Positions 10,938-30,364 of a stretch of 64,000 bases of DNA are shown in pieces (positions within the stretch are counted from its first letter, which is position 1; every line of letters begins with the position of its first letter). Made by a program: the position numbers and the translations under genes. This DNA comes from Candidatus Xenobia bacterium (GTDB lineage: Bacteria; Vulcanimicrobiota; Xenobia; Xenobiales; QWHO01). Where the stretch lies: NCBI GenBank assembly GCA_045863235.1, contig BTUM01000014.1:32001-96000 (forward strand). Direction: 5' to 3'. Under the pieces are notes generated by a model. The model was not told where the DNA came from. It did no database searches and saw only the letters and a program-made list of their open reading frames with translations.

Positions 10938-11013
10938 TGGCCTCCACGGACGGACTCGAACCGTCGACCTACCGCTTAGGAGGCGGTCGCTCTATCCCCT
11001 GAGCTACGCGGAG
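10938..11013 (-). tRNA. tRNA-Arg (anticodon CCT)
   Basis: 76-nt cloverleaf: acceptor CTCCGCG/CGTGGAG, anticodon arm ACCGC-CTCCTAA-GCGGT, T arm GACGG-TTCGAGT-CCGTC, encoded CCA. Confidence 0.95.
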
Positions 11014-18830: not shown

Positions 18831-19337
18831 TCAGTCTCCTGGCCGATTCTCCTCCCCCTCGCCCAGGCCCAGGTCGAGCAAAGCTTGTCGCACGCTGGGA
18901 AAGGCCAGTTCCTTCCAGGGGATGTCTCCGGGCAAGAACCAGCGAGCCTCCGAGCACTCCGGACCAGGGTTGGCACTACCGGAGAGCACCTCCGCCTCGT
19001 AGACGATGACCACCACGATGCTGGTCGGATAGCTGTAGACACCCAGCAACCGCCGGCAAGAGACCTCCAGTCCGGTCTCCTCGAAAACCTCGCGAGCGGC
19101 CGCTGAGGGAGCGGTTTCGCCGCGATCCATGTAGCCCCCGGGGTAGGACCACAAACCCCGGCCAGGCTCGATGTCACGCCGAATCAGCAAGATACCCTCA
19201 GGACCTTGCACAACCGCGCAGCAGGCGACCTTGGGGTCGAGAAAGTGCACCCTGTCGCAAGCCCGGCAGTAATGGCGGTCCTTGCGATCCACCAGGCGCA
19301 TGCTCAGCTCGGCCGAACACTCGCTACAGTATCTCAA
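18831..19337 (-). CDS. Zinc-ribbon NUDIX hydrolase
   Basis: TTG start, RYCSEC...CRAC zinc ribbon, Nudix box PGGYMDRGET...AAREVFEETG. Confidence 0.85.
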   Translation of the reverse strand: MRYCSECSAELSMRLVDRKDRHYCRACDRVHFLDPKVACCAVVQGPEGILLIRRDIEPGRGLWSYPGGYMDRGETAPSAAAREVFEETGLEVSCRRLLGVYSYPTSIVVVIVYEAEVLSGSANPGPECSEARWFLPGDIPWKELAFPSVRQALLDLGLGEGEENRPGD

Positions 19338-19382
19338 GGGGTTGCCCCCGGCTGGCAGGATTCGTACAATACTTGCAGCCTC

Positions 19383-19955
19383 ATGCGTCACTATCGCTTT
19401 CGTATCGACCTTCGCGTCCTCAAGCGCGGCGGACCTGCCGGCCCCCCCCGAGAGCGGGTCGACTTCTCGCCCGAGGAGGAGCCCGAGGAAGAAAGGCTCT
19501 TCCCGCTCGAGGAAACCGGCGATCCTCAGGTGCGCGCTTACAATGCCAGCCTGAGCTGGGCTTGCAGCCATTTGCCGGGCCGTTTCGTCACCGGGACCCT
19601 CGAATTTAACGTCTTCAAGGGTCCCGAGCAAACCTTCCACGTCATCACGCGACCGCGCAATAGTAAGAGCGAGCGCGTCTCGGAGGTGGTCGTCTTCCCG
19701 GACGGACAACTCTTGAGCCGGAGCCTGAGCCTCCAGGAAGGCGAGCCACAAGATCTGGAGGAGCTCTTCAAGGAAGGGCTGGAGTGGCTCGATCAGGACG
19801 ACCAGGCCCTGGCTGACCTGCCCGGCTACGAACTCCAGGCCACCTGGTATCAGCGAGAGGGCAGCCACCTTGTGGGCGTGGAACGCTGGCAACGCTACTG
19901 GGACCTGGAAACAGACAGCCTGGTCCATCACCAGGCCGGCGGCGCCCGCGCCTGA
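19383..19955 (+). CDS. Hypothetical acidic protein
   Basis: MRHYRFRIDL start; divergent from the NUDIX gene and abuts the convergent ORF. Confidence 0.6.
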   Translation: MRHYRFRIDLRVLKRGGPAGPPRERVDFSPEEEPEEERLFPLEETGDPQVRAYNASLSWACSHLPGRFVTGTLEFNVFKGPEQTFHVITRPRNSKSERVSEVVVFPDGQLLSRSLSLQEGEPQDLEELFKEGLEWLDQDDQALADLPGYELQATWYQREGSHLVGVERWQRYWDLETDSLVHHQAGGARA

Positions 19956-20393
19956 TCACTCGCCCGGCCCGTCGCTCGTAGGCGCTTCCCGGCGAACCTC
20001 CAGGCCAGCCCGATGCACCTCTCGCCCATCCACCTCGAAAGCCAGGGCGTAGAGCCCGAAGCGCGGAAAGACCACCTCTTCCAGGCCGATGATCAGTCGC
20101 ACGGTCGGCTCACCCGCATAGTTGACCTGGTTGAAACTGAGCGAGCCCTGCATCTCGTATTCGGCCTGGCCATCCGCATTCATCATCCGCAGTCTGAAAG
20201 GCCGCTCCAGCGGCGTTCCTGGCTCGGCGCGCAGCTGCAGCACGTAAAACATGCCATCCAGGCTGCAGGGTACCCCGGGAACGTTGAGCCGATCAAAACC
20301 GATTCCGCGAGCGTAGAGTTTGCCAGCGTCCTGCTGGGCAAAGTGGCACAGGAAGCCAAAATCCATCATGGGCATGGGGGCGCCTTCGGTCAC
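19956..20393 (-). CDS. Hypothetical small beta-sandwich-like protein
   Basis: Coupled to the radA stop; FLCHFAQ..GKLY..GIGFD...FPRFGLY pattern. Confidence 0.65.
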   Translation of the reverse strand: MTEGAPMPMMDFGFLCHFAQQDAGKLYARGIGFDRLNVPGVPCSLDGMFYVLQLRAEPGTPLERPFRLRMMNADGQAEYEMQGSLSFNQVNYAGEPTVRLIIGLEEVVFPRFGLYALAFEVDGREVHRAGLEVRREAPTSDGPGE

Positions 20394-21844
20394 CCGGCTG
20401 GAATTCTCCTCCCCGGTCGAGGACCCGAAGGGGCGCCACCCGAAGGCCCGGGACTGGCCTCCAGGCCGGCGACCTGAAGTGCCTCCACCAGCCAGGAGAT
20501 GCCGACCAGCTGCAAGGGTCGATAGTCTCCGGGCTCCAGGCCCTCCAGGTTGCGAGCCGGCACCAGACAGCGCCTGAAACCCATCTTGGCCAGCTCCTTG
20601 AGCCGGGTCTCGAGTTGAGTGACCGCCCGCACCTCGCCCCCGAGCCCGAGTTCGCCCACGGCGGCAAGTTCCGCGTCGAGGCTTACGTTCTGCCGGCTGG
20701 AGACGACAGCCAGGGCCAGGGGCAGGTCCAGGGCGGGCTCGAGCAGGCGCAGCCCGCCGGCCACGTTCACGTAGACGTCCGAGCGGGCCAGGTTCAGGTT
20801 GCTGGCGCGTTTATGGACCACGGCCAGCAACAGGCTGACCCGATTGGGATCGACCCCGACCGACCGCCGCGTGGGCGGCACCCCGTTGTCGCTGACGGGG
20901 TTCGTGCTGACAAGCGCCTGGATCTCCACCAGCAAGGGGCGAGTGCCTTCCAGGGAGGGAAACACGATCGAGCCCGGACCGCCCCCGGCGCGCTGGGACA
21001 GAAAGAAGGCCGAGGCATCGGGAATTGACTCCAGCCCCCGGGCGCCCATCCGAAACAACCCGATCTCCTGGGTGCTTCCGAAACGGTTCTTGACCGAGCG
21101 CAGAGCCCGCACGTTGTGCATTCCGTCGCCCTCAAAATACAAAACCGTGTCCACCAGGTGCTCGAGCACGCGCGGGCCGGCCAGCTCGCCCCCCTTGGTC
21201 ACGTGACCCACCAGCAGGACCGGAATGTTCTCGGCCTTGGCCAGACGCATCAGGCTTGCCGCACACTCGCGTACCTGAGTGACGCTCCCGGGAGCCGGCG
21301 CAAGATCGGAGCGGAACAGCGTTTGAATGCTATCGATGAAGACCAGGCCAGGCCGGGTAGAGCGAATGTGTCCTTCGATGGCTTCCAGTCGGGTCTCGGA
21401 GACCATGAGGATGCCAGGAGCCAGCGCGTTCAAACGCTCGGCCCGCATGCGAATCTGGCGGGCCGACTCCTCGCCGCTCACATACAAGATCGGCGCCCTG
21501 GTCTGAGCCAACTGGCGGGCAATCTGCAGCAAGAGTGTAGACTTTCCGATGCCGGGGGGGCCGCCAAGCAGCACCAGGGAGCCCGGCACCACTCCGCCCC
21601 CCAGGACCCGGTCGAGCTCTTCCACGCCGGTGTTGAAGCGCGGCTCGTCATCGAGGGCGACCTGATCGAGGGCCACCGGGGCCTGACCCGGATCGAGCGA
21701 GAGGGCGGCACCTAGAGAGGCGCGCTGGACAGCCTCTTCCTGGAAGGTATTCCACTGGCCACAGTCAGGGCAGCGCCCCTGCCACTTGGCCGACTGGCCT
21801 CCACATTCCTGACAGACGTAGTGGGTCTTGCCGCGAGCCTTCAC
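20390..21844 (-). CDS. radA: DNA repair protein RadA/Sms
   Basis: CQECG...CPDC zinc finger, GPPGIGKST, KNRFG, Lon-like C-terminus; GTG start after GGGAGG. Confidence 0.96.
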   Translation of the reverse strand: MKARGKTHYVCQECGGQSAKWQGRCPDCGQWNTFQEEAVQRASLGAALSLDPGQAPVALDQVALDDEPRFNTGVEELDRVLGGGVVPGSLVLLGGPPGIGKSTLLLQIARQLAQTRAPILYVSGEESARQIRMRAERLNALAPGILMVSETRLEAIEGHIRSTRPGLVFIDSIQTLFRSDLAPAPGSVTQVRECAASLMRLAKAENIPVLLVGHVTKGGELAGPRVLEHLVDTVLYFEGDGMHNVRALRSVKNRFGSTQEIGLFRMGARGLESIPDASAFFLSQRAGGGPGSIVFPSLEGTRPLLVEIQALVSTNPVSDNGVPPTRRSVGVDPNRVSLLLAVVHKRASNLNLARSDVYVNVAGGLRLLEPALDLPLALAVVSSRQNVSLDAELAAVGELGLGGEVRAVTQLETRLKELAKMGFRRCLVPARNLEGLEPGDYRPLQLVGISWLVEALQVAGLEASPGPSGGAPSGPRPGRRIPAG

Positions 21845-21856
21845 AAGGACCTCCCG

Positions 21857-22610
21857 AAAAAAAAAGAGCAAGACCCCGGGAACTCTTCCTGGTCACCCTG
21901 GCTCGCCCCGTAGGGCGGCTGACATCGCTGACACTCTGACCGTAGCGCTTGGCGGCGAGTGGGACCGTTTCCGGTCCAGTGATACCCTCTGCTGGCCAGT
22001 CATTTCTGGCGGACCTTCTCAGGTCTGGCCTGGGAGAACTCCCCGGCCCGGTGCTTGCTTCCGTGGAAGCAGCCTTGAGGTCGACACGAGTTGCCTTTTG
22101 AGCAATTCGTTCCGGGCAACCCCCGTGGGGGTTGGATACCGCCCCGAGGGGCGGTTCGCGCCATCTCGACTCGCAGGCCGGAGCCTGTTGTTCGAGTCGT
22201 GCTCGGAAGCACTTGGCTTCCAGAGCAAGAACGTGAATCGCAAGGTTCAACGTTCATTCGGGCGGGCGATGCGAGGCTCCTGAGCCTCTGCCATCCGGTC
22301 TTGCCGGGCCACTTCGGTTTCTTGCACTGGCAGTTCGCCGTCGCGATGGACCTCAGGGGGTCTCTCTGCAGGGCGGTTGAAGTAGCTTCGCCGCTCGGAT
22401 TCCGTCAGGGCGTACCCCGTCGGATGATGGCGCCCTCGTTACGGACACACCTTTCGGTGCGGTCGCCTTCTTCGTCCGGAGGCGGTTCGCGCCACCGGAA
22501 GCGTCCTCAGTTCTCTGCAGAGGTCGCAGAGGCTTTACTGGAGACGAGAGGGTTCGATTCAGCTTTGATGTCTTCGGGTGCCTGGTTCCTCCGTTCGCTC
22601 GGGGTCTTGC
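21857..22610 (-). ncRNA. Candidate large structured non-coding RNA (~750 nt), family unassigned
   Basis: 11-bp terminal helix (22600-22610/21868-21878), four more nested long-range helices, many local hairpins including GAAA/GAGA/UACG loops, promoter directly upstream, U9 tail, no credible ORF. Confidence 0.72.
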
Positions 22611-22616
22611 AGGCGG

Positions 22617-22645
22617 AATATACCATCCGGGGGTGGTTCACACAA
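22617..22645 (-). promoter_or_regulatory. Sigma70-type promoter for the candidate ncRNA/radA leader
   Basis: TTGTGT (22645-22640), 17-bp spacer, extended TGn-TATATT (22622-22617); predicted +1 near 22610. Confidence 0.65.
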
Positions 22646-22759
22646 GCCAACAAGTGTTCGATTTTTAGAGTCTCATTCAAGTGGCGCCAGAGCGCCATTC
22701 AATCGAATGAAGACCCGAGAACCCCGTCAGGATGCCGATCTGTCAACGAACACAGGAAC

Positions 22760-22822
22760 GCTAAAGTGCAAGACCAAGGCCTTGCACTTACAACGCGCCA
22801 GATGGGGCTAATGTGCAAGACC
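22760..22822. repeat. Palindromic REP-like element (family 1)
   Basis: GCTAAAGTGCAAGACCAAGGCCTTGCACTTACAACGCG...GCTAATGTGCAA matches 16223-16298. Confidence 0.75.
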
Positions 22823-22825
22823 AGA

Positions 22826-24205
22826 TCAGTTCCTCTCGGCCTCCTGAGTGCGCCAGTAGTTCTGGCCGGCTTCGCCCAGGGTGTAGACCGGGTCAAAATA
22901 CTCATAGCGCCGGTTGACCGCCTCGGGATCATCTCCCTCGATGCTGGTCCGGTAGTTCTTGGTCCAATACGAGATGCCACGCTCGCGATCATAGTCGGCG
23001 ATCTGATGCACCCAGCGCTTGCCCACGTAGGGGACGTCGCAGATGATGCGGGGAGTGGCGTAGCCGGGCAGATAGCCCATGATGTCGTGCTGCAAGCGTT
23101 GGGCCTCGTGCACCGCCAGTCGCCAGTGCTCTGAATTGGGAATCATGTCGCACATGTAGAAGTAGTAGGGCATGATATTGGCCCGGTCGAGCAAGGTGAA
23201 GCAGAGATCGAGCAAATCTTTGGAGGTCCCGTTGACCCCCCGCAGCAAGACGCCCTGATTGCGCACGTCACGGAAACCGGCTTCGTCGAGCAGATGCCGA
23301 GCCGCTCGAGCGACCAGCGGGGTCAGTTGCTGGACGTGATTCACGTGAGTGTGCAGGGCCAGGTCCACGTCGTGCTGACGGGCCTTCAAGCCCAGCCGCT
23401 CCATGGCATAGCGCACCTCGTCTTGCAGAAAGTGTTGAGGCAGGCCCATCAGGCCCTTGGAAGCCAGGCGGATGTCCCGGATGTGGGGGATCTCGATCAG
23501 GGCCGACACGAACGACTCGAGCGAGCTGATGGGCAGGTTGGCCACGTCTCCCCCCGACACGACCACGTCGCGAATGGTGGTGGTGCGGCGCAAGTAGTCC
23601 AGAATCTGCTGGTGACGCTCGGTCTGCTTGACCAGGAAGCGGTGCTTTTTGACCTGGGGAACGTCCCGCCCGACCAGGTCCATCCGGGTACAGTGACCGC
23701 AGTATTGGGGACAGGTCGAGAGCAATTCGGCCAGGACCTTTGTGGGGTAACGGTGGGTCAGGCCCTCGACCACCCACATCTCGGACTCGTGAAGGCTGTC
23801 ACGACTGGCCCGGGGGTGGTTGGGCCAGTCCGGGTTGCGGTCCTGGATGGCAGGCAACATGTAACGGCGCACCGGGTCGTTCTCGAGGTCGTCCAGGTTC
23901 ATGGTGTTCAGCATCTGGGGGGGGACCAGCATGGACATGGTGGCGCGCTCTTCCAGGTCACGGGCCATCCCTTCGGCCAGGCTGTCGCTGAGGTGCGAGC
24001 CCAGGGTCTCCTTCAGCTCAGCCAGGTTCTTGACCGTGTGCTTGCGCTGCCAGGTGGCGTCCTCCCATTCCTTCTCGGTCACACGAGCATAGCCGGGAAT
24101 GCGCCGCCAGTCGGGCTCGACGAACTCGCGCTGGGGAGGATAGGCGTATGGTTGCTCGGAGGCCTCAATGCTCCGCGCTTTGGGTTCATTGGAGATGATT
24201 GTCAT
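22826..24205 (-). CDS. kamA: KamA-family radical SAM protein (lysine 2,3-aminomutase-like)
   Basis: GLTHRYPTK, CPQYCGHCTR, VVVSGGD, NQGVLLRGVN, PYYFY and VGKRWV motifs. Confidence 0.88.
   Translation of the reverse strand: MTIISNEPKARSIEASEQPYAYPPQREFVEPDWRRIPGYARVTEKEWEDATWQRKHTVKNLAELKETLGSHLSDSLAEGMARDLEERATMSMLVPPQMLNTMNLDDLENDPVRRYMLPAIQDRNPDWPNHPRASRDSLHESEMWVVEGLTHRYPTKVLAELLSTCPQYCGHCTRMDLVGRDVPQVKKHRFLVKQTERHQQILDYLRRTTTIRDVVVSGGDVANLPISSLESFVSALIEIPHIRDIRLASKGLMGLPQHFLQDEVRYAMERLGLKARQHDVDLALHTHVNHVQQLTPLVARAARHLLDEAGFRDVRNQGVLLRGVNGTSKDLLDLCFTLLDRANIMPYYFYMCDMIPNSEHWRLAVHEAQRLQHDIMGYLPGYATPRIICDVPYVGKRWVHQIADYDRERGISYWTKNYRTSIEGDDPEAVNRRYEYFDPVYTLGEAGQNYWRTQEAERN

Positions 24206-27850: not shown

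Positions 27851-30364
<2,514 letters not shown>

Follow-up and report, generated by a model that had tools for sequence, protein, structure and literature searches.

The sequence analysed here (the window) is a stretch of 64,000 nt from Candidatus Xenobia bacterium (GenBank assembly GCA_045863235.1, contig BTUM01000014.1, positions 32,001 to 96,000), and our subject is the gap on its minus strand between radA and an upstream gene for a KamA-family radical SAM protein. This gap probably holds the gene of a stand-alone, very abundant and strongly structured noncoding RNA of a previously undescribed family (22610-21857, minus strand). The RNA gene of about 750 nt starts with a G at 22610 and ends with a tail of nine U residues at 21865-21857. 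The gene behind it, radA (20390..21844, minus), encodes the DNA repair protein RadA/Sms, as indicated by NCBIfam model TIGR00416 (550.9 bits versus a cut-off of 403) and by Pfam domains. Reading of the sequence places its start at the GTG codon at 21844-21842, 12 nt past the U-tract and with GGGAGG in front. The upstream gene (22826..24205, minus) encodes a lysine 2,3-aminomutase-like protein, which matched TIGR00238 with 164.5 bits, under the cut-off of 199, and did not match any Pfam family at an E value of 0.001. A previous reading of the letters alone (the sequence-only reading) had spoken of a clpC-radA stress locus, a picture to be corrected in that clpC (27851-30364) is located about 5 kb upstream of the RNA gene and three other genes lie between them.

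A sigma-70-type promoter is found at 22617..22645 (minus), with the -35 motif TTGTGT at 22645-22640, a 17-nt spacer, the extended -10 motif TG-G-TATATT at 22625-22617, and G+1 at 22610. This is the promoter that the sequence-only reading had described, with +1 near 22610, and its layout is alike in all 16 loci of the RNA family characterized below. The -35 motif is abutted by an imperfect palindrome, CGAACACTTGTTGG (22647..22660, minus), which is part of a block, CGAACnnnTGTTGGCTTG, that is identical in 16 of 16 loci from four clades; the spacer and the -10 motif vary. As an exact 18-mer, the block occurs once per genome in genera g4 and g5, each time at the RNA gene, and is absent from eight genomes of genus g2. 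The scan is informative for exact matches only, as with two mismatches it returned the control level. The promoters of the RNase P RNA, the signal recognition particle (SRP) RNA and a 6S candidate do not contain the element CGAACACTTGTTGG. The promoter is supported by the conservation of the block as well as by RNA contigs that stop at 22592-22641, 7-25 nt downstream of the -10 motif. A separate feature is present just upstream, at 22672-22710, where a hairpin, GGCGC-UCUG-GCGCC (22696-22683), lies between direct TTGAAT repeats. It is kept between the window genome (G000, 97.6% complete) and the related genome G004, though the remaining intergenic DNA there cannot be aligned, and it coincides with a weak Rfam row for RsmY on the plus strand (20.9 bits versus 57 needed).

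Coding capacity, transcript and fold

The gap had been read as devoid of a credible open reading frame (ORF), and this was borne out. None of the three ORFs overlapping the gap matched a Pfam family. The RNAs of G000 and G004 are 68% identical; their differences are distributed over the three phases as 80/65/86, with no 3-periodicity, and in 16 of 20 gap runs the length is not divisible by three. For the radA genes of the same two genomes, which served as a control, the phases were 89/57/210 and all three gaps were multiples of three. Between the two genomes, the intergenic DNA ahead of the promoter cannot be aligned (37% identity). Because the RNA is 68% identical next to unalignable intergenic DNA and lacks a codon pattern, it is under selection, but not as a coding sequence.

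Known families were searched for with the 4227 covariance models of Rfam 15. At the gathering score, the tRNA gene at 10941-11013 (minus, 63.4 bits) was the only match in the whole window. When the region 21700-22900 was searched at E values of up to 10, three weak rows at chance level were obtained, and the sole one inside the RNA was PhotoRC-I with 11.4 bits versus 45 needed. Six homologous loci did not yield a match at the gathering score, and for four loci (L033, L005, L009 and L038, including the 305-nt form of g4) the best E value in a search up to 1 was 0.53. The sequence-only reading had seen no signatures of RNase P, tmRNA, SRP or group II RNAs, and the housekeeping RNAs were indeed located elsewhere in the genome: RNase P RNA at C1:376129-376495 (272.9 bits), tmRNA at C2:159646-160033, SRP RNA at C13:12410-12510 (66.5 bits), and the 6S candidate at C34:8852-9026 (35.5 bits, under the cut-off of 46.4). 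A group II intron was rejected, with no Rfam intron model matching at E values of up to 10 and no Pfam family in the overlapping ORFs. A literature search across titles and abstract openings did not retrieve a paper on such an RNA.

These searches make it very improbable that the RNA is a far-diverged representative of some family already described (RNase P, tmRNA, 6S, group II intron, OLE etc.) or a small ribozyme that has been split by a large insertion. Covariance models do become less sensitive once a long insertion splits a motif, and only the ends are conserved in the present case. However, no Rfam match inside the RNA rose above some 11 bits, none on the 305-nt g4 form was better than E 0.5, all housekeeping RNAs are accounted for elsewhere, and an ORF for a reverse transcriptase or maturase is lacking. 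Furthermore, cleavage into halves is contradicted by RNA contigs that extend over almost the entire molecule.

Transcription was assessed in 14 RNA runs from six studies, in which a fraction of 0.41-0.72 of the sampled words of 21400-23000 was present, and coverage was read in four of them (X4, X6, X7 and X9). The evidence is drawn from these four and does not include the other ten, whose fractions were 0.41-0.44. In X6, a bioreactor metatranscriptome, bin depths were 2,300-114,000 over 21832-22641, compared to 3.5-7.2 for radA and 4.0-4.7 for kamA, and the depth was 0 over 22642-22857. The contigs of this run cover the RNA from 21865 to 22641 at a depth thousands-fold above that of both neighbouring genes. 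High-depth contigs reach position 21865, the first U of the tract (21857..21865, minus) that marks the RNA end, and none extends beyond it. In X7 the RNA is represented by a single 717-nt contig (21883-22599, depth 8), and in X9, a run of 6,618 contigs, by a single contig of again 717 nt (21876-22592, depth 171.6); in both runs the flanks are empty. The contig ends from the three studies lie no more than about 20 nt apart at both sides and no more than 20 nt from the predicted start and the U-tract, whereas the DNA continues. What accumulates is a discrete transcript of about 720-750 nt, from the conserved promoter to the U-tract, in accordance with the previously expected 5' end near 22610 and 3' end near 21860. 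The RNA is among the most deeply covered sequences in those libraries. One high-depth contig of X6 (depth 15,205; 33 nt on its short side) joins 21865, the RNA 3' end, to 22112, 248 nt back; it may have arisen from a very abundant RNA as a chimera of library preparation or assembly, or it may represent a rearranged form. A joint of the 3' end to the 5' end, as in a circular RNA, was not seen in the RNA contigs of X6.

The RNA is predicted to be highly structured. For a 756-nt stretch, the minimum free energy (MFE) was -362.8 kcal/mol, compared to -292.7 +/- 8.9 kcal/mol for 20 dinucleotide shuffles, none of which was as good (z -7.89). The outermost helix, P1, is formed by the perfectly complementary strands GCAAGACCCCG and CGGGGUCUUGC (22610-22600 with 21878-21868), and it is followed by UC and U9. 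The four further helices that the sequence-only reading had nested inside P1 are all in the MFE fold as well: P3 (22580-76 with 21894-98), the first and second parts of P4 (22572-67 with 21921-26 and 22563-59 with 21927-31), and a fifth helix (22553-47 with 21984-90). The pair probabilities of the five long-range helices are 0.87-1.0. In a consensus fold of four orthologues the first four were kept, and the fifth was swapped for a local alternative. The 3' strand of P4, UCAGC-GAUGUC (21921..21931, minus; probability 0.87-1.0), is invariant in the four orthologues; in g5, a P4-equivalent helix of other sequence, GACGC.AACUGAA with UUCAGUU.GCGUC, is found at the same place. All four of the tetraloop hairpins that had been named were found: GGACCG-GAAA-CGGUCC, CACC-GAAA-GGUG, GACCU-GAGA-AGGUC, and GCCGCCC-UACG-GGGCGGC.

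Covariation was quantified in an alignment of the four radA-upstream orthologues, i.e. those of G000, G001, G003 and G004, the latter three being 96%, 96% and 71% identical to the first by BLAST. Out of 231 consensus pairs, 22 were changed on both sides, compared to 6.7 +/- 2.3 in 500 shuffles, none of which reached 22. Sliding the partners by one to three columns reduced the number to 2-5, and it also reduced the fraction of paired cells from 94.8% to 31-41%. In a stricter test, the fold of G000 only was read on the G004 sequence; 23 two-sided changes kept the pair, versus 8-12 after sliding, and 60 pairs were broken. The small g4 form gave a similar result, with 12 of 85 pairs changed on both sides in six sequences, compared to 4.3 +/- 1.6 in shuffles and 1-5 after sliding. 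The fold is thus conserved with compensatory changes. The Rfam search, the folding z-score, the covariation and the search for a transcript of about 750 nt had all been suggested as checks on the original proposal, and each of the four came out in its favour.

Relatives in other genera and the end clamp

Sixteen loci were reached by BLAST with the window region and by following up the matches. The RNAs upstream of radA in the window genus g1 (type A, four loci) are 748-755 nt long, a second paralogue of the same genus (four loci, one of them on a metagenome contig) has 986-1033 nt, the two g5 members have 731 and 973 nt, and the six g4 members are the smallest with 305-337 nt. The second paralogue is present in the window genome itself, where the BLAST match of the window region to a second locus, on contig C103, was limited to the promoter and the first 60 nt. 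This 986-nt paralogue (C103:22420-23405; L009 553-1538, minus) has the same promoter block and the same ends around an unrelated interior, is followed by a second terminator-like hairpin, and is located about 6 kb from uvrA (C103, about 14.5-17.4 kb). The proteins encoded beside one paralogous locus are not related to those beside the other (best E values, 2.4 and 4.5).

All 16 loci have in common the block CGAACnnnTGTTGGCTTG directly upstream of the -35 motif, the 5' end, the 3' end and the U-run. The 5' end of the family reads G(C/U)AAGACC(C/U)CG-(A/UU)-GCG(A/G)ACGGAGGAACC, and with the exception of four positions the first 27 nt are invariant in all 16 loci. The 3' end reads ...GUUC...C(G/A)(A/G)GGUCUU(G/A)C, is followed by the U-run and pairs with the 5' end. 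The RNA of the window has every one of these features, i.e. the promoter block, both ends, the U-run and the pairing of the ends.

Together, the two ends are predicted to form a clamp of three helices. In the window RNA, its 5' strand (22576..22610, minus) comprises P1 (22610-22600), a joining segment J, P2 (GAAC, 22596-22593), the invariant GGAGGAA (22592-22586), CC (22585-22584) and P3 (CACCC, 22580-22576), with pair probabilities of 0.98-1.0. The 3' strand (21866..21898, minus) comprises P3 (GGGUG, 21898-21894), GG (21889-21888), AAGA, P2 (GUUC, 21883-21880), P1 (CGGGGUCUUGC, 21878-21868) and UC. The clamp recurs in every clade, with a P1 of 11-12 bp, a small internal loop, a P2 of 4 bp (G(A/G)AC with GUUC), GGAGGAA opposite AAGA or GCAA, the CC/GG pairs, and a P3 of 5 bp. 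In 14 of 16 members, the three helices enclose a purine-rich internal loop. P1 covaries between clades, position 2 being C-G or U-A and position 9 being C-G, U-A or U-G, and the six distinct clamp types that were parsed did not contain a non-canonical pair in it. P3 differs by clade (CACCC/GGGUG, ACCCG/CGGGU, ACCCA/UGGGU, and CCUAC/GUAGG). The second paralogue of G004 has a P1 that is short of one pair.

The interiors, by comparison, comprise about 230-950 nt and can be aligned neither across genera nor across the two paralogues within a genome, and the matches of an nhmmer profile of the g4 form to the other clades were confined to model positions 1-38 and 268-314. Judged from these sequences, the relatives in three genera have nothing in common beyond the promoter block, the first 27 nt and the 3' end. 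A large, possibly new RNA class had been suggested by the sequence-only reading. The novelty of the family is supported, but in place of one fixed 750-nt architecture it comprises RNAs of 305-1033 nt with only the ends conserved between genera. In the 973-nt g5 RNA (L006 of genome G013, positions of about 505-600), two nearly identical UUCG-capped hairpins, GUCUUC-UUCG-GAAGAC and GUCCUC-UUCG-GAGGAC, are each present twice, which suggests that interiors may grow by tandem duplication of hairpins.

The family is present in four of five g1 genomes (the miss is a 65%-complete genome), in six of six g4 genomes and in both g5 genomes. Relatives were sought by nhmmer profile, pattern and BLAST, approaches by which very divergent ones may be missed. 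A 17-mer scan of the phylum sample with one mismatch did not reveal real matches in about 360 other genomes, although the g4 variant, which differs at three positions, is outside its reach. Matches were obtained for 11 of 401 genomes, six of them family members and five of them single-mismatch cases in family f15; the reversed control pattern yielded 12 matches. The f15 cases and a second match in G025 were discarded, as the flanking motifs are missing. Scans of larger collections returned three loci in genome contigs (identical to G001 and G004) and three in metagenome contigs (all of the second-paralogue type); the pattern of these scans had two to three bases between CG and GCG and thus addressed only 'UU' variants, whereas the window variant has one base there. 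Viral contigs yielded no match. In g2, uvrA faces the same divergent peptidase gene as uvrA of g5, over a short gap without the RNA. A methyltransferase gene upstream of the g4 loci was considered as an RNA-linked gene and dropped, because homologues with 30% identity also occur in g2, which lacks the RNA, and a co-occurrence signal is therefore missing.

Known large RNAs and a palindromic loop

A resemblance to OLE, GOLLD, ROOL and MISL RNAs had been proposed; it holds for size and ornateness and is limited to those, as a match to any known family was not found. OLE has a core that is conserved along its full length and occurs in Bacillota. The window RNA is similar to it in size, ornateness and abundance, but has no sequence or structure match to it in the Rfam search, is conserved only at its ends, and is hosted by a lineage labelled Eremiobacteraeota/Vulcanimicrobiota. 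GOLLD and ROOL are typically found in prophages near tRNAs. They share with the window RNA the size class (about 580-800 nt), the GNRA- or UNCG-capped hairpins and the fact that a function has not been assigned. The differences are that there is no Rfam match, that viral contigs contained no copy, that the nearest tRNA is about 11 kb away, and that the interior is not conserved between genera.

Two smaller RNAs were also compared. 6S RNA is abundant and rod-shaped, measures about 185 nt and has a central bubble and paired ends, and in E. coli it is co-transcribed with the downstream gene. The window RNA is likewise a very abundant, stable RNA with paired 5' and 3' ends, but its family has 305-1033 nt and a multi-branched structure, and the genome has a separate 6S candidate. 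Y RNAs, which are bound by Ro or Rsr and have been linked to the UV response in Deinococcus, have a conserved end stem as recognition site and a variable remainder. The conserved end stem and the variable body are alike; the differences are that Y RNAs have only about 100-200 nt and need Rsr. The domain of this partner, TROVE (PF05731), had no match in G000, while the control genomes of Deinococcus and Bacteroides were positive.

Near its 3' end, the window RNA contains a hairpin (21932..21961, minus) with a 10-nt loop, CCAAGCGCUA (21952-21943), that includes the palindrome AGCGCU. This 3'-domain hairpin is situated 66-88 nt from the 3' end in g1 type A and in g4, where the loop contains CCUAGG. 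We consider it unlikely that the RNA self-assembles by using this loop as a kissing contact, as might be proposed by analogy to OLE, ROOL and GOLLD. In favour of such an assembly are the 9-10-nt loops with a 6-nt palindrome in whole-RNA MFE folds (AGCGCU in three of three folded type A RNAs, CCUAGG in four of six g4 RNAs), an excess of palindromic six-mer windows over all hairpin loops (7 of 137, versus 2.1 expected), and the presence of CCUAGG and UCUAGA at this place in the two g5 species, a double change that keeps the palindrome. However, the seven matches stem from only two independent lineages, i.e. two of the four clades, the second-paralogue copies of g1 do not have such a loop, and local folds of g5 bury part of the palindrome inside a hairpin. 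Two papers describe OLE RNA (RF01071) as an ornate, structured, abundant and stress-linked RNA of about 600 nt without a settled biochemical function (PMC12054373, PMC10898510). OLE, GOLLD and ROOL are reported to self-assemble, and according to a third paper, GOLLD and ROOL form RNA-only homo-oligomers (PMC12286853).

Interpretation and placement at repair genes

Conservation suggests that the clamp, together with the invariant 5' sequence GCGAACGGAGGAACC, would be the functional core of the RNA. Most likely it would be the platform by which a protein or another RNA recognizes the molecule. It may also protect both ends against exonucleases, which would account for the high steady-state level. 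The ornate interior would represent a lineage-specific elaboration that is selected within a genus and replaced between genera; selection within the genus is evident from an identity of 68% where neutral intergenic DNA is unalignable. Large structured bacterial RNAs without an assigned function are few to our knowledge, OLE, GOLLD, ROOL and raiA being among a handful, and each has opened new biology. The phylum has hardly any cultured members. For the RNA described here the in silico support is unusually complete, comprising a conserved promoter, covariation, noncoding substitutions and a deeply covered, discrete transcript in public metatranscriptomes. The architecture is also unusual, as an invariant end clamp surrounds unrelated interiors over a threefold size range, and it singles out about 70 nt.

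Several observations speak against the interpretation as a stand-alone structured RNA, or limit it. A strict sigma-70 consensus scan of 21500-23000 did not call a promoter, because the -35 motif matches at only three of six positions. A terminator scan did not reveal a local terminator hairpin at the 3' end, because the U-run is preceded by P1, a long-range helix. Of the 231 consensus pairs, 51 are broken in one orthologue or more, mainly in columns 490-660, in which G004 is poorly aligned, and each alignment used for the covariation counts contains just four to six sequences. The RNA runs consist of assembled contigs with per-contig depths, from which exact ends, strand and read-through are not readable, and in X4 the RNA was not in excess over the flanks and had an uncovered hole at 21967-22207. 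The open loop of the clamp is not universal, as a change in the 3' strand of the G004 type A RNA permits pairing of the purine loop (ACGGAG with CUCCG). The role proposed for the clamp derives from its conservation, and the invariance of the 27-nt 5' end could in part reflect a constraint at the DNA level, e.g. an operator or the initially transcribed region. Lastly, searches of g2 (0 of 8 genomes) and of the small-genome family f3 (0 of 19) did not reveal the RNA family, so that the order can do without it.

Seven of the 16 loci lie directly upstream of a DNA repair gene, namely radA at the four type A loci of g1 and uvrA at both g5 loci and one g4 locus, and the gene start follows 8-15 nt past the U-tract. 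As this leaves no room for a promoter of their own after the U-tract, the only sources of radA and uvrA transcripts would be read-through from the RNA promoter and starts within the RNA. Thereby, the RNA gene would double as the transcriptional entry to a repair gene, and its repeated placement as the sole entry to radA or uvrA makes for a testable link to DNA repair. In the window, radA is followed by a gene for a DUF6941 protein (19956-20393, minus), with a 4-nt overlap between its start and the radA stop, and then by a gene for a NUDIX hydrolase with an N-terminal zinc ribbon (18831-19931, minus); radA and these two genes may constitute a single operon behind the RNA.

This layout raises the alternative that the RNA is a giant cis-acting leader of radA and uvrA, which, in the manner of an oversized riboswitch or attenuator, would sense a signal and set the balance of termination and read-through at the U-tract. 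The close spacing of the starts (12 nt for radA, 8-15 nt for uvrA) without promoter room is in its favour, as is a local hairpin in g4 and g5, GGGCAAG...CUUGCCC, that competes with P1 for the same 3' sequence. Nevertheless, there is little probability that the RNA is such a leader. Both alternative pairings leave a helix before the U-run, and an obvious anti-terminator is thus missing. The interior, in which the sensor would be expected, is not conserved between genera, and accumulation thousands-fold over the downstream message would be unexpected for a terminated leader. A riboswitch or attenuator leader would always precede the gene that it controls, but a repair gene is not directly behind the RNA at nine of the 16 loci. 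The C103 copy ends in two terminator-like structures and has no adjacent repair gene, and in both g4 loci tested (two of five) the next gene encodes an alpha/beta-hydrolase. These loci argue for a stand-alone gene rather than a dedicated leader.

The palindrome upstream of the promoter led us to consider a second alternative, according to which it is a LexA operator and the RNA, together with radA or uvrA, is induced upon DNA damage (the SOS response) and acts in genome maintenance. We regard this as possible but rather doubtful. The element CGAACACTTGTTGG is one mismatch away from GAAC-N4-GTTC, which we take to be the Gram-positive LexA box. A perfect version, CGAACAGGCGTTCC, precedes uvrA of G000 by about 50 nt, and GAACG(A/G)ATTTTC is present about 97 nt before the start of the lexA orthologue in four of six genomes, with GAATACGTGTTC in a fifth. 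The presence of radA or uvrA directly behind seven of the 16 RNA loci also agrees with it. However, lexA of G009 does not have a box, and GAAC-N4-GTTC is absent at recA and at a dinB-like gene. Furthermore, the element is situated upstream of the -35 motif and centred near -43, a position as typical of an activator as of a repressor, and the extreme abundance of the RNA in ordinary community samples would not be expected for a repressed gene. None of 14 ORFs beside 10 GAAC-N4-GTTC sites has a repair annotation and only one matched a Pfam family (HNH), so that an attempt to reconstruct an SOS regulon from the palindromes was dropped; in addition, many of the 51 palindromes lie in a 64-nt tandem repeat. 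Taken by their sequences, the sites make a link of the RNA to DNA damage possible.

The most far-reaching scenario combines these elements into a giant RNA class of genome maintenance, with a damage-controlled promoter, produced in very large quantity, shut by the sequence-specific clamp, multimeric via the palindromic loop, and working with RadA and UvrA or gating them, i.e. an RNA component of bacterial DNA repair. It is quite improbable; if true, it would be an RNA part of bacterial DNA repair without a known counterpart.

Two further observations concern G000. At several contig ends (C5:192886-193142, C31:6-133, C88:30372-30500 and C131:51-115), tandem repeats with a period of 64 nt contain GACGAACG(T/C)GCGTTCCGG. 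As such repeats occur at many contig ends, they break the assembly, and they inflate the GAAC-N4-GTTC counts. The genome also encodes two further proteins with a LexA DNA-binding domain (C1:322933-323115 and C85:7938-8117, in frames of 343 and 239 aa), and the gene on C1 has its own palindrome, GTGGACAAATGTCCAC, and a related half-matching site in front.

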